NCBI GenBank assembly: GCA_964573245.1
Contig: CAZNJA010000024.1
Location: 1 to 18,492, forward strand
Length of the DNA stretch: 18,492 bases
Direction: 5' to 3'
Source of the DNA: an uncultured bacterium
Lineage (GTDB): Bacteria; CAIJMQ01
Part shown: in pieces, positions 3,126 to 15,408 of the stretch
Position numbering within the stretch: the first letter of the stretch is position 1
Layout: each line of letters opens with the position of its first letter
The notes under the pieces: model-generated
The model's input: only the letters and a program-made list of their open reading frames with translations
What the model was told of the DNA's origin: nothing
Databases searched by the model: none
Program-made: the position numbers and the translations under genes

Positions 3126-4154
3126 ATGATATTTGATCGTATCTGGGGTTTTTCTTCCAATGACCTGGGTATAGATCTGGGCACCGCAACTACTTTGGTA
3201 TATGCTAAAGGTAAGGGTATAGTTTTGTTTGAGCCTTCGGTCATAGCTATTCATAAGGGGTCAAATTCTATACTTGCTGTAGGAAACGACGCAAAAGAAA
3301 TGCTTGGCAAAACCCCTGCCTCTATCGTCGCAACAAGACCTCTGAAAGACGGAGTAATCACCGATTTTGAAGCGACAGAAGCAATGTTGAGATATTTCAT
3401 GAACAAAGCCAACAGTAGAAGAAGACTTATTCGTCCGAGAGTAGTAATAGCAATTGCCTCCGGAATTACGGAAGCCGAAAAAAGAGCAGTTAAGGAGTCC
3501 GCAGTAGAAGCAGGGGCTCGTGAAGTGTATTTAGTAGAACAACCGATGGCTGCAGCTATCGGCGCAGGTCTGCCGGTCCAAAATCCAGGTGGGAATATGG
3601 TTGTTGATATTGGCGGCGGAACGAGTGAAGTCGCAGTAATTTCCCTGGCGGGAATCGTGGAATGCCAAATGATTAGAATTGCGGGTGATGAAATGAACGA
3701 GGCAATAATCCAACACATGAAAGATAAACACAATTTGATGATAGGAGAACGGACAGCGGAAGACGTCAAGATAAAAATCGGCTCTGCTTTCCCGCAAGAA
3801 GAGGAAACAAGCATGCAAGTGAAAGGAAGAGATTTAGTTGCAGGGCTTCCCAAAACTTTGACTATTTCTTCAGAGGAAATAAGAGAAGCATTGAAACCTC
3901 CTGTAGACGCAATTCTAAAAGTAATAAGGGAAACCCTGGAAAGAACTCCGCCCGAATTGGCCGCGGATTTAGTTGATAAAGGGATAGTTTTGGCAGGCGG
4001 TGGTTCCTGTCTTAAAGGATTGGACAAAACTATCGCGGAAAAAACCGGCTTGCCAGTGGCAATGGCTGAAGATCCTTTCACTGCAGTAGCAGTAGGCGCA
4101 GGCAAGTGCCTCGACGAAATAGCTTTTTTAAGAAGAATCGCAACTTTCGAATAA
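3126..4154 (+). CDS. mreB: Rod shape-determining protein MreB (actin-like ATPase)
   Basis: GIDLGTATT, EPSVIAI, RPLKDGVI, PMAAAIGAGLPV, VDIGGGTSEVAVISL, TPPELAAD, GIVLAGGG. Confidence 0.97.
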   Translation: MIFDRIWGFSSNDLGIDLGTATTLVYAKGKGIVLFEPSVIAIHKGSNSILAVGNDAKEMLGKTPASIVATRPLKDGVITDFEATEAMLRYFMNKANSRRRLIRPRVVIAIASGITEAEKRAVKESAVEAGAREVYLVEQPMAAAIGAGLPVQNPGGNMVVDIGGGTSEVAVISLAGIVECQMIRIAGDEMNEAIIQHMKDKHNLMIGERTAEDVKIKIGSAFPQEEETSMQVKGRDLVAGLPKTLTISSEEIREALKPPVDAILKVIRETLERTPPELAADLVDKGIVLAGGGSCLKGLDKTIAEKTGLPVAMAEDPFTAVAVGAGKCLDEIAFLRRIATFE

Positions 4155-4315
4155 ACCCCGTTAGAGATAGGTCGCCACATATACCCTCGGCTTCGCCGAG
4201 AGGCGAGCAATGGCGACCGTAACTTATCTGTAATGTCTCTATCTTCTCGTCAACTTTTACAATTTTAAGTGGGATTTGATCTTTTGTTTGTTTTTTTATC
4301 TCTAAACGGGGTAAA
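4152..4315. mobile_element. MITE-like palindromic element with terminal inverted repeats and an internal nested hairpin
   Basis: ACCCCGTTAGAGATA (4155-4169) pairs with TATCTCTAAACGGGGT (4297-4312) apart from one extra A. TAAA occurs at both ends (4152-4155, 4312-4315). Inside, GGTCGCCA (4170-4177)/TGGCGACC (4211-4218) encloses CTCGGC-ttc-GCCGAG (4186-4200). Confidence 0.65.
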
Positions 4316-12941: not shown

Positions 12942-13526
12942 AATTGTTTTAAGGTATTCTCTCACTTTCTTAAAAGCCATTGCTCTGTGTGAAATCTTAT
13001 TCTTTATCTTATCTCCGAGTTCTGCGAATGTTTTGTTATATTCCGGTATGAGAAAGACCGGGTCGTAGCCGAAACCCGATGTGCCGTGTGGAACTGTTGT
13101 GATTATTCCTTCTATTGTGCCGTTGAATATTTCCTTTCTGCCGTCGGGAAAAACCAAAGCGGCAACACATCTGAACCGTGCTTTTCTGTTCTCTTCCGGG
13201 ACATTCTCCATCATTTTAAGCAGGTTATTGTTGTTATCGGCGTATGTGGCATTTTCTCCGGCAAAACGTGATGAATATACTCCGGGAGCGCCGTTAAGGT
13301 AATCCACTTCAAGCCCCGAATCATCCGCCAAAGCGGGCTTCCCTGTTTCTTTCATCCAAGCGTTGGCTTTTTTTATCGCATTTTCTTCCAAAGTTTTCCC
13401 GTCTTCTTTAACCGAAAGTTCCCGCGGGTGTTCGTCAAAAGTTATGATGTTAACAGGAAGCCCTTTAAGTATTTCCCTAATCTCTTTTATTTTATCTTCG
13501 TTTTTAGTAGCGAGAACTATTTCCAT
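12927..13526 (-). CDS. rdgB: XTP/dITP diphosphatase (Ham1 family non-canonical purine NTP pyrophosphatase)
   Basis: LATKNEDKIKE, EDGKTLEENAIKKA, ADDSGLEVD, GAPGVYSSRF, GFGYDPVF, KNKISHR. Confidence 0.96.
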   Translation of the reverse strand: MEIVLATKNEDKIKEIREILKGLPVNIITFDEHPRELSVKEDGKTLEENAIKKANAWMKETGKPALADDSGLEVDYLNGAPGVYSSRFAGENATYADNNNNLLKMMENVPEENRKARFRCVAALVFPDGRKEIFNGTIEGIITTVPHGTSGFGYDPVFLIPEYNKTFAELGDKIKNKISHRAMAFKKVREYLKTIDAGC

Positions 13527-13540
13527 TTCTTTTAGAAATT

Positions 13541-13694
13541 GATTACACGGATTATTAAATGCAGATTACACAGGTTTTTAGTTGTTAATCCTTAATCAGT
13601 GTAACCGCTAGTAAATGATAGCAGAAATTATAGCAAAATGTTAAAGTATTAGGTTTTTACTCAATTCTTAATCCTGAATACTTAATCCTGTATT
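13541..13694. repeat. Degenerate short-period repeats in the rdgB / radical SAM divergent intergenic region
   Basis: GATTACAC occurs at 13541 and 13564. GATTACACGGATTA (13541-13554) has an inverted copy TAATCAGTGTAACC (13593-13606, 12/14). A heptamer run CTCAATT-CTTAATC-CTGAATA-CTTAATC-CTGTATT spans 13660-13694. Confidence 0.6.
13627..13635 (-). promoter_or_regulatory. Candidate extended -10 promoter for rdgB-trpF
   Basis: The minus strand reads TGCTATAAT (TGnTATAAT) about 100 bp upstream of the rdgB start. There is no consensus -35. Confidence 0.45.
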
Positions 13695-13698
13695 TATT

Positions 13699-15171
13699 AT
13701 GCAAAACATTTTACTAATTAATCCCTGGATATGCGATTTTGCGGCGTATGATTTATGGATGAGGCCTGTCGGACTTCTGCGGATTGCGTCTCTTTTAAAA
13801 GCGCACGGTTATAATATTTCTTATATAGATTTTCTCGACCGTCACCATCCCAAAATAAAAAAATTGATAAGAAGTGATGATTTTGGCTGCGGAAAATTTT
13901 ACAAAAGGCAAATTCCAAAACCGGATAAAATAAAAGATGTCCAGCGCCCTTATTTTATATATGGGTTGCCTGAAGAGTTGATAAAAGAAGAAGTAAAAAA
14001 TGTTTTTAAGCCCGATGTTATCTTTATGACATCGGGAATGACGTACTGGTATCCTGGGCTGGAATATACCTCGCAATTTTTGAAGAAAAAATTTCCCGAT
14101 ATCCCGATTGTTCTTGGCGGCATATATGCAACCTTGCTCCCAAAACACGCAAAGAGTTTAAAGGGTATAGATTATGTAGTAACAGGGAGTGATTTGTCCG
14201 CGCACCAGTCCCAAACCGATGCTGGTTCGGGACGGTGCGGGATTTCGCCCAACAATGAAGTTCCACATACAAAGGTGGCTACACCGTCGGTTTGTTCTCA
14301 AGTTTCCGAAATCTTAGGCCAGGATGTAAAATCTCCCGAGAATTATCTTTACCCTGAATATTCCTTACTTTCCGATACTTCATCCTTGGTAATAGAAACT
14401 TCCAAAGGTTGTCCGTTTAATTGTTCTTACTGCGGGTCAAAACAACTAAATAAAAGTTTCGTTCAAAGAGCTCCCGAAGAGGTTGTTGAAGAAATAGAAT
14501 TTTACCGAAAAAACTACGGGGTTAAAGATATTGCTTTCTATGATGATGCTCTTTTGGTTAATGCCGATGAACATATTATTCCTATTATGGACGGGGTTTT
14601 GGAAAGAGAAATCGCTGTAAACCCCCACACCAAAGGTTTTCCTGCCCGCCAAGATTTGGCAGGCGGGGGTGTGGGGGTAAACTTTCATACCCCTAACGGC
14701 TTACATGTAAGGTTTATAGATAAGAAATTGGCGAAGAAACTGAAAGAGGCAAATTTCAAAACTATAACGTTATCTTTTGAAACGATTAATCCTGTTCGCC
14801 AGAGAAATACCGGAGGTAAAGTTACTACCGAGGAATTCAAGACAGCGATTGAAAATTTAAAAAGTGTTGGCTACAGCGGAAGAGAAATTGGTGTATATCT
14901 TATGATGGGGATGCCTTATCAGGGGGGAGAAGAAGTAAAAGAAGGCATTGAATTTCTGCATAAACTTAAAATTCATATTACCCTTGTTACATATTCGCTT
15001 GTTCCAAATACTATGGACGCAAAGGCGTTGCTGGAGAAAGGAATAATAAGTACGGATTTAGACCCATTATGGCACAACGATACTATTTTTCCGCTTGTGG
15101 AGGGCAATTTTTCGCTTGAGGAGATAAGAAAACTAAGAAATTATGTTTCAATTCTAAATAGAAAACTTTAA
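13699..15171 (+). CDS. B12-binding-domain radical SAM protein carrying two in-frame palindromic insertions
   Basis: N-terminal ILLINPWICDFAAYDLW..P.GLL, TSGMTYWYPG, VLGGIYATL (cobalamin-binding-like domain). The radical SAM core has TSKGCPFNCSYC (CxxxCxxC), FYDDALL, FHTPNGLH and YLMMGMP. Confidence 0.92.
   Translation: MQNILLINPWICDFAAYDLWMRPVGLLRIASLLKAHGYNISYIDFLDRHHPKIKKLIRSDDFGCGKFYKRQIPKPDKIKDVQRPYFIYGLPEELIKEEVKNVFKPDVIFMTSGMTYWYPGLEYTSQFLKKKFPDIPIVLGGIYATLLPKHAKSLKGIDYVVTGSDLSAHQSQTDAGSGRCGISPNNEVPHTKVATPSVCSQVSEILGQDVKSPENYLYPEYSLLSDTSSLVIETSKGCPFNCSYCGSKQLNKSFVQRAPEEVVEEIEFYRKNYGVKDIAFYDDALLVNADEHIIPIMDGVLEREIAVNPHTKGFPARQDLAGGGVGVNFHTPNGLHVRFIDKKLAKKLKEANFKTITLSFETINPVRQRNTGGKVTTEEFKTAIENLKSVGYSGREIGVYLMMGMPYQGGEEVKEGIEFLHKLKIHITLVTYSLVPNTMDAKALLEKGIISTDLDPLWHNDTIFPLVEGNFSLEEIRKLRNYVSILNRKL
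14193..14295. repeat. In-frame insertion of about 99 bp made of two tandem hairpins
   Basis: TTTG|TCC(G)CGCACC-A-GTCCCAAACC-6nt-GGTTCGGGAC-GGTGCGGGA|TTTC|..CCAACAATG..CCAC-8nt-GTGG..CACCGTCGG|TTTG. It encodes SAHQSQTDAGSGRCGISPNNEVPHTKVATPSVC. Confidence 0.65.
14617..14682. mobile_element. 60-bp in-frame nested palindromic insertion bounded by a GTAAAC direct repeat
   Basis: GTAAAC at 14617-14622 and 14677-14682. ACCCCCACACC (14621-14631)/GGTGTGGGGGT (14668-14678) is a perfect inverted repeat. An inner 27-bp hairpin spans 14641-14667. Confidence 0.8.
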
Positions 15172-15292
15172 AAAATACAAATAGATAACATTTCAATTTC
15201 AAAACTCCACAAGTGTTCCTCCGAAGAAAAGACAACCCTACTCTTGTTATTTCAACAGGATTGGCGGATGTCTTATGGGTTTCTGCATAAAG

Positions 15293-15321
15293 TTGAATAT
15301 CCCCATATTATTCACTATAAT
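15293..15321 (+). promoter_or_regulatory. Sigma70-type promoter for tRNA-His
   Basis: TTGAAT (15293-15298), 17-bp spacer, TATAAT (15316-15321), 12 bp before the tRNA. Confidence 0.75.
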
Positions 15322-15333
15322 CCCAGTCAGATT

Positions 15334-15408
15334 GGTGGCTATGGTGTAATGGCAGCACAAGAGACTGTGGCTCTCTTTGTACGAGTTCAAATCTCGTTAG
15401 CCACCCCA
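15334..15408 (+). tRNA. tRNA-His (GUG)
   Basis: G-1, acceptor stem GTGGCTA/TAGCCAC, D arm GTGT..GCAC, anticodon arm AGAGA-CT-GTG-GC-TCTCT (anticodon 15367-15369), T arm ACGAG-TTCAAAT-CTCGT, discriminator C and encoded CCA. The G-1:C73 pair is the His identity element. Confidence 0.97.

Follow-up and report, generated by a model that had tools for sequence, protein, structure and literature searches.

The stretch analysed here (the window) comprises 18,492 nt of an uncultured bacterium (contig CAZNJA010000024.1) and carries an intact gene for a B12-binding radical S-adenosylmethionine (SAM) protein, into which an in-frame insertion of 60 bp introduces 20 extra residues. The insert is composed of two palindromic units, one lying inside the other: an outer unit (family A) and an inner unit (family B). 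All positions are those of the window and are specified in Table 1. The genome holding the window (G000) is a fragmented draft of 1,456,377 bp in 110 contigs (cited as Cn), with 38.4% GC and 93% completeness; G001 to G004 are the relatives that have an ortholog of the gene.

Table 1. Features of the radical SAM gene, its in-frame inserts and the tRNA gene downstream
Feature	Position	Strand	Remarks
Host gene, B12-binding radical SAM protein	13699..15171	+	490 aa, intact open reading frame (ORF), motif CPFNCSYCG
Second in-frame insertion, 87 bp, 29 aa, SAHQSQTDAGSGRCGISPNNEVPHTKVAT	14197..14285	+	boundaries ambiguous by 2 nt; predicted local distance difference test (pLDDT) <50 at residues 166-194
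GTAAAC, left copy	14617..14622
Left TAAA of the putative 4-bp target-site duplication of the outer unit	14618..14621	+	same TAAA pair around copies at C60 and C77
Arm ACCCCCACACC	14621..14631		11 nt, 100% complementary to GGTGTGGGGGT
60-bp in-frame insertion	14622..14681		20 aa
Outer unit (family A), left arm and loop CCCCCACACCAAAGGTTTT	14622..14640	+	near-identical uninterrupted copy at C60:6937-6967
Inner unit (family B), CCTGCCCGCC-AAGATTT-GGCAGGCGGG	14641..14667	+	27-bp imperfect hairpin, encodes PARQDLAGG
Outer unit (family A), right arm GGTGTGGGGG	14668..14677	+	complementary to left arm
Arm GGTGTGGGGGT	14668..14678		11 nt, pairs with ACCCCCACACC
GTAAAC, right copy	14677..14682
Right TAAA of the putative duplication	14678..14681	+	pairs with left TAAA
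tRNA gene	15335..15400		RF00005, 51.5 bits; cut by the end of the searched stretch

The host protein was assigned by sequence to the B12-binding radical SAM proteins: it has a Radical_SAM domain (PF04055, 87.9 bits, 1.1e-24, profile search), a CxxxCxxC motif and an N-terminal B12-binding domain (PF02310, 42.9 bits, 5e-11, profile search). The cluster cysteines C238, C242 and C245, invariant in a 21-sequence alignment, were retained. Homologs numbered 6656 at E <= 0.001; the nearest among the matches listed were 66-75% identical and mainly 441-450 aa in length.

The insert begins at residue 307 and reads VN-PHTKGFPARQDLAGGGVG-VN-FHTPNGL (peptide context ...EREIAVN-PHTKGFPARQDLAGGGVGVN-FHTPNGL). 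The original prediction of a 60-bp, 20-aa in-frame insert stood. The repeat by which it was said to be bounded needs correcting: rather than GTAAAC, it is a TAAA duplication of 4 bp, to which the element ends and the flank contribute the additional G and C. Unit A is a 29-bp palindrome (CCCCCACACC..GGTGTGGGGG; CCCCC...GGGGG core in the window, with TAAA on either side) which, with the 4-bp TAAA duplication, gives 33 bp in total. When the inner 27-mer was deleted, a 31-nt hairpin remained, its 14-bp stem perfect and its loop GGT, as had been described, and the inner and outer units (27 and 33 bp) measured multiples of three, as had also been claimed. The 11-bp stem of unit B in the window includes a single G-U pair and a single C/A mismatch. 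No stop codon occurred in the six frames of unit A or unit B; because of this and of the unit lengths, the gene stays open. The 66-nt stretch folded at -22 kcal/mol as DNA and at -39.8 kcal/mol as RNA (z = -4.8 each; equalled by 0 of 200 shuffles). Inside the window alone, the outer word was weak evidence of repetition: 2 matches were found vs 0.34 expected, and 12 of 200 shuffles reached 2.

An AlphaFold2 model based on the 21-sequence alignment (mean pLDDT 80.1, predicted template modelling score 0.82) was confident outside residues 15-24, 166-194 and 307-324, the latter two being the two in-frame insertions. Residues 307-324 had pLDDT <50 and were flanked by a helix (293-306) and a strand (328-330), so that the 20-residue insert is predicted to form a low-confidence, disordered loop between a helix and the strand with the invariant FHTPNG motif. 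In TIM-barrel-like radical SAM folds, helix-to-strand loops face away from the active site.

For comparison of the site, the query was aligned with 20 of the 120 matches listed (P0002-P0018, P0020, P0023 and P0034). Eighteen of the 20 homologs had no insert and read ...GVLEKKIRVNFHTPNGL, the single VN and gap that the original prediction had anticipated. The other two, P0004 and P0008, have a 9-residue hairpin-type peptide at the site (PHTKGFGVG or PYTKNSGAG), and the B-encoded PARQDLAGG was absent from all 20. P0004 thus shows, at the peptide level, an A-only state. At the DNA level, an ortholog was present in 5 of 41 related genomes (G000 included). The empty-site alleles that had been sought in related genomes were found in G001, G002 and G004 (three of the four relatives), and G003 (= P0008) carried a degenerate 28-bp A-type hairpin without the inner unit. 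No Rfam family was matched at the insert; the tRNA gene of Table 1 was the sole match in 13500-15400.

Families A and B across genomes

Both units recur in G000, which agrees with the expectation that further genomic copies of each would exist. For unit A, CCCCCACACC occurred 8 times vs 0.58 expected (3rd-order Markov model, used for all word counts that follow in this section), and 7 copies were recovered by a tolerant pattern, plus two seen by eye at C11 and C77. The solitary copy at C60 (Table 1) differs from the reconstructed hairpin of the window in its loop only. The exact A pattern was found in 3 of 61 related genomes (reversed-pattern control: 0) and, in a scan of one genome per species, the A hairpin was found at 121 loci or more across many phyla; by record title these included many Patescibacteria, Omnitrophota, Planctomycetota, Nitrospira and Deltaproteobacteria-type genomes, and one Nanoarchaeota genome.

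The flanks of unit A were analysed in the 122 copies with sufficient flank. An exact 4-bp direct repeat abutted the core in 50 of them, vs 9.5 when flanks were re-paired at random; the repeats varied (TTTA 17, TAAA 14, TGAA 4, CAAG 3, others), and the most frequent core was 29 bp long (51/122), corresponding to a 33-bp insertion. The flanking repeat is read as a target-site duplication, a mark of transposition, and these repeats are therefore evidence that A has transposed.

Unit B was more abundant in G000: CCTGCCCGCC was observed 39 times vs 3.0 expected and GGCAGGCGGG 28 times vs 3.2 expected, and a tolerant pattern gave 26 copies, the 27-mer being repeated letter for letter at C2 and at two sites within C17. 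When ORFs of at least 90 aa, which cover 90.4% of G000, were taken as a stand-in for genes, 16 of the 26 copies lay outside ORFs (binomial p = 1e-10). Copies were solitary, inside other palindromes or inside heptamer-repeat runs, the last among others at C13, C48, C52, C40 and C27. In solid genes, B was read in three frames (PARQDLAGG, RLPNLGGQ and PPAK.WRAG). The exact B pattern was present in 6 of 61 relatives (reversed-pattern control: 1). B as a unit was found at 119 or more loci of many phyla (with the related loops AAGGCTT 21 times and AGGGCTT 11 times among the matches listed) and in 11 viral contigs. No flanking repeat was detected at the nominal ends in 88 of 131 B copies, and no shifted boundary did better.

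Four A+B composites were found in G000 (C24, C2, C17 and C77) and share one junction, B lying between ...TTT and GGTGT... Their A halves differ in arms and loops, and their B parts are identical or 1 nt apart. Two of the sites that hold A+B in G000 have A only in G003: the radical SAM gene and folC. The strict composite pattern was matched at 0 loci of the species-genome collection. A loose version was discarded: it gave at least 120 matches listed, none of which was a composite, many of them in GC-rich taxa such as Streptomyces. B was also found nested in another B unit in 6 of the 119 copies listed from other phyla, in 4 cases exactly between the loop and the 3' arm, which is consistent with the junction rule suggested by the composites.

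In G000, units were also located in other genes, which were named by reading the sequences and not by family search, as follows: an A+B composite in a folC-like gene; B within a family-C hairpin in a uvrC-like gene and within a family-C element in an mfd-like gene; B in a fused rpoB-rpoC ORF and in a pyrK-like gene; and A alone in mnmA. The folC site holds A+B in G000 and A only in G003, and is empty in three relatives. The uvrC site is filled, with different inner variants, in G000, G001 and G002 and empty in G003 and G004. In rpoC, B is present in G000, another 36-bp palindromic insert occupies the same point in G001 and G002, and the site is empty in G003 and G004. The A copy of mnmA is a clean insertion of 33 bp and 11 aa, absent from 3 of 3 aligned orthologs.

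Two further approaches were tried on the genome. A screen for perfect hairpins (stems >=9 bp, loops 3-14 nt) gave 210 matches vs 127-139 in Markov controls and was rejected as too strict for repeats that are imperfect and nested; clustering of k-mers with a low count cut-off was rejected as well, all repeats being merged into one component.

Order of insertion and alternative explanations

The 60-bp insert is attributed, with a probability of about 0.78, to the arrival of two unrelated miniature repeats, one after the other, in the same tolerant loop of a functioning gene. Because G003 has A alone at two sites that hold A+B in G000, and because of the comparison of the composites, the data favour an earlier arrival of A and a later one of B, at a preferred junction within A. 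The two sequential insertions first proposed thus gained support from the outer-only state (in G003, and at the peptide level in P0004) and from the folC series.

The events may be reconstructed as follows. In the first step, the 29-bp A, built as two inverted arms of 12-14 nt with a loop of 3-5 nt, would have entered TAAA within the Val-Asn codons and duplicated 4 bp, for a net gain of 33 bp. In the second, the 27-bp B would have entered the A hairpin without duplication, between ...GGTTTT and GGTGTGG. The gene would have stayed open and would most likely be translated with a 20-residue disordered loop. It is proposed that A was moved in trans by a transposase making 4-bp staggered cuts, and that B spread by a different, duplication-free route, for which single-strand hairpin insertion and conversion are examples. 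On this view, they would be passengers, selfish or neutral, among which selection would spare those that keep the frame intact and sit at permissive positions.

Several observations weigh against this account. The gene tree was a polytomy in which three sister pairs had support, and in every pair an insert is present in one member and absent from its partner: P0002/P0006 and P0003/P0007 differ at insertion 1 (the 87-bp insertion) and P0004/P0010 at the site of the 60-bp insert. Same-site gains or precise losses must therefore recur, and the tree cannot show that the A copy of the window stems from the same event as that of G003 or P0004; the left flank of the G003 copy is, in addition, 15 bp shorter. 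The original prediction also implied that lengths in multiples of three would prevail among copies within genes. The direction was as predicted (27 bp in 6 of 6 solid-gene copies of B vs 12 of 20 elsewhere), but the contrast was short of significance, at low power (Fisher p = 0.13). Of 25 B copies in G000, just 6 were surrounded by strongly complementary flanks, as judged by flank duplex energy; B can thus do without a hairpin host, and the idea that it always targets hairpins was dropped. Perfect-stem flanks (>=7 bp) of the 119 listed B copies from other genomes gave no separation (9% vs 5% in the control); the hosts are imperfect and the control shares the repeat families.

Lastly, no mobilising enzyme was found in G000, a negative that is no evidence of absence in a draft of 93% completeness, given that assemblies often miss repeats. 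DDE_Tnp_1, rve and the TnpB zinc ribbon had no match in G000, and the A arm half-sites at C26 and C83 had no partner arm and no transposase nearby. The lone Y1-like sequence of G000 was a PF01797 (Y1_Tnp) match of 32.7 bits (C12:23931-24167) in a 436-aa ORF (C12:23859-25169), the C-terminal part of which resembles a small upstream ORF (...IIWETMQ...WRG...VMRGVLS). It reads SYCLSSDKVYLLI at what we take to be the position of the HUH motif, which has seemingly been lost. HUH/Y1 enzymes are expected to leave no target duplication, and B likewise has none.

A single event, in which a ready-nested 56-bp A+B composite was transposed into TAAA and the A-only hairpins of G003 and P0004 are independent, would account for a TAAA duplication that encloses the whole composite, for the identical internal junction of the four G000 composites, for a tree that does not group P0001 with P0004 or P0008 and for the different left boundary of the G003 copy. 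It is nonetheless rated improbable: A arms and loops differ among the four composites while B parts are identical or 1 nt off, folC of G003 has A alone exactly at the A+B position of G000, and the exact composite pattern is missing from the species-genome collection.

A hairpin maintained for its usefulness, whether its RNA structure sets the pace of translation or mRNA decay or the protein loop is under selection, was considered less probable again. The presence of inserts varies among the closest relatives (P0004/P0010 at this site, P0002/P0006 and P0003/P0007 at insertion 1), the majority of B copies are intergenic and the inserted loop is predicted to be disordered; against these points stand the very stable RNA fold (-39.8 kcal/mol, z = -4.8) and the refilling of the same loop positions across relatives, in some cases (the rpoC and uvrC sites among them) by a different element. 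Local origin without mobility, by template switching or replication slippage, has very little to commend it: perfect hairpins are reportedly produced by template switching, but unrelated loci and other phyla share identical 27-mers and 31-mers that are nearly so, and A has 4-bp target duplications. An assembly or binning artefact, conceivable for a fragmented draft of 110 contigs, is scarcely credible for an insert that is in frame, has related, diverged counterparts at the same site in independent assemblies of relatives, and includes a repeat whose copies have target duplications.

Further in-frame inserts and related repeats

The 87-bp insertion of the host gene is common to P0001, P0002 and P0003. 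G001 and G002 are 96.3% identical over the gene, yet differ by exactly this insertion; between G000 and G002, it is 83.9% identical and the gene overall 77.4%. It holds a family D hairpin (ACCCRCGCACCAGTCC..GGACGGTGCGGGGTTTCGCC; ~10 copies) with a variable inner hairpin. Orthologs have further hairpin-like inserts at other sites: P0008 and P0010 read SPHTKSFSVG or YPHIKGFGVG ahead of YPEYSLL, a degenerate A copy in the DNA of G003; P0009 has a 37-aa insert following the cluster motif; and P0011, P0013 and P0014 have VPPTFLRNVAGGT near the C-terminus, P0013 with an additional nested piece.

In the other genes, the following was observed. The rpoB and rpoC genes are seemingly fused in one 2662-aa ORF (G000:C8:25479-33464), and G001-G003 have frames of 2652-2691 aa. 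The pyrK-like gene contains an in-frame run of heptamer repeats (G000:C9:7690-7770) with the B copy inside; the heptamers are of CATCGTC type in G000, TCTGTCG in G003 and of another type in G004. The folC gene of G002 has its own in-frame segment, TRLRSSSFGCASPKALPAARGQV, at a separate site, absent from G000, G001, G003 and G004. A MITE-like family (MITE: miniature inverted-repeat transposable element) with terminal repeats ACCCCGTTAGAGAT, ~70-125 bp in length and with swappable internal hairpins, occurs in the window (~4150-4235) and genome-wide; its word CCCCGTTAGA was observed 87 times vs 1.2 expected, and the uvrC-like and mfd-like genes contain in-frame copies of the element, complete or partial.

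Significance and comparison with known systems

These units stand out by their very small size, the 4-bp duplication of a 29-bp element, the nesting and the cross-phylum identity of their arms. If the 4-bp duplications mark transposition, 29 bp suffices for mobilisation, which would lower the size limit for mobile elements and point to a widely shared transposase. With a confidence somewhat below even, we suggest that A may be smaller than any transposable element seen so far, a palindrome of 29 bp with a fixed 4-bp duplication and identical arms across phyla; that B would be a second cosmopolitan hairpin, of 27 bp, which spreads by another, duplication-free route and enters A at one fixed junction in G000; and that the two could jointly, and reversibly, generate in-frame loop insertions in essential genes of uncultured microbes with small genomes, driven by possibly horizontally mobile enzymes. 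In practice, such inserts inflate and vary the loops of conserved proteins in metagenome-assembled genomes and may mislead alignments, gene trees and structure predictions. To our knowledge, selfish DNA in working genes is textbook matter for Rickettsia only. Among the papers that full-text searching listed, none deals with these repeats in Omnitrophota or Patescibacteria.

Seemingly nearest in size are the small dispersed repeats (SDRs) of Nostoc-type cyanobacteria, which Elhai and co-workers are said to have described in 2008: they reportedly measure ~21-27 nt, insert into each other and go together with heptamer tandem repeats. The host phylum differs; B copies are found here in heptamer arrays.

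Unit A resembles a MITE in having perfect terminal inverted repeats of 11-14 nt, a fixed 4-bp duplication with TTTA/TAAA preferred, and filled and empty sites among relatives. MITEs are, however, elements of 70-300 bp with inverted repeats of 15-30 bp in the account of PMC3733652, whereas A, at 29 bp, is basically two arms and a loop and falls below that size range. No parent insertion sequence with A ends was found in G000, the only genome searched for one.

Unit B resembles the REPs (repetitive extragenic palindromes), summarised in the same account as imperfect, GC-rich palindromes of 20-40 bp that are mostly intergenic, with intragenic GTAG- or CGTC-tagged copies often in repair genes and some in genes for DNA repair or RNA-binding proteins (PMC3733652). 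B likewise is short, GC-rich and imperfectly palindromic, has many copies that are mainly extragenic (26 copies, 16 outside ORFs), and is found in uvrC, an mfd-like gene and rpoC of G000. Reading the flanks of its copies revealed no constant GTAG or CGTC tag at its ends. REP doublets forming hairpins (REPINs) are moved by REP-associated tyrosine transposases (RAYTs), according to PMC3116915; no intact RAYT was recognised in G000 (93% complete), its lone Y1-like ORF apparently being without HUH. A difference is that B is shared across phyla, while REPs are described in these sources as species- or genus-specific.

In behaviour, A and B resemble the Rickettsia palindromic elements (RPEs; Ogata et al. 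2000, in the summaries given by PMC10969869 and PMC3733652), palindromic repeats of ~150 bp that lie in frame in Rickettsia genes (PMC10969869). RPEs are characterised there as dispersed palindromes that lie in frame in unrelated housekeeping genes and are read as an extra peptide, the function of the protein being thought to survive; A and B likewise are dispersed palindromic repeats that lie in frame in functional ORFs. The original prediction had drawn this parallel and had added that the Rickettsia elements are several-fold longer, which the figures bear out: the units measure 29 bp (+4) and 27 bp vs ~150 bp, below the ~100-150 bp expected of an RPE. They are further set apart, by description, in that A and B nest, occur in an Omnitrophota/Ratteibacteria-type genome and have arms that match exactly across many phyla, while RPEs are known from Rickettsia. 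What is seen here is Rickettsia-like behaviour from elements five times smaller, which stack and which have filled, half-filled and empty alleles among close relatives.

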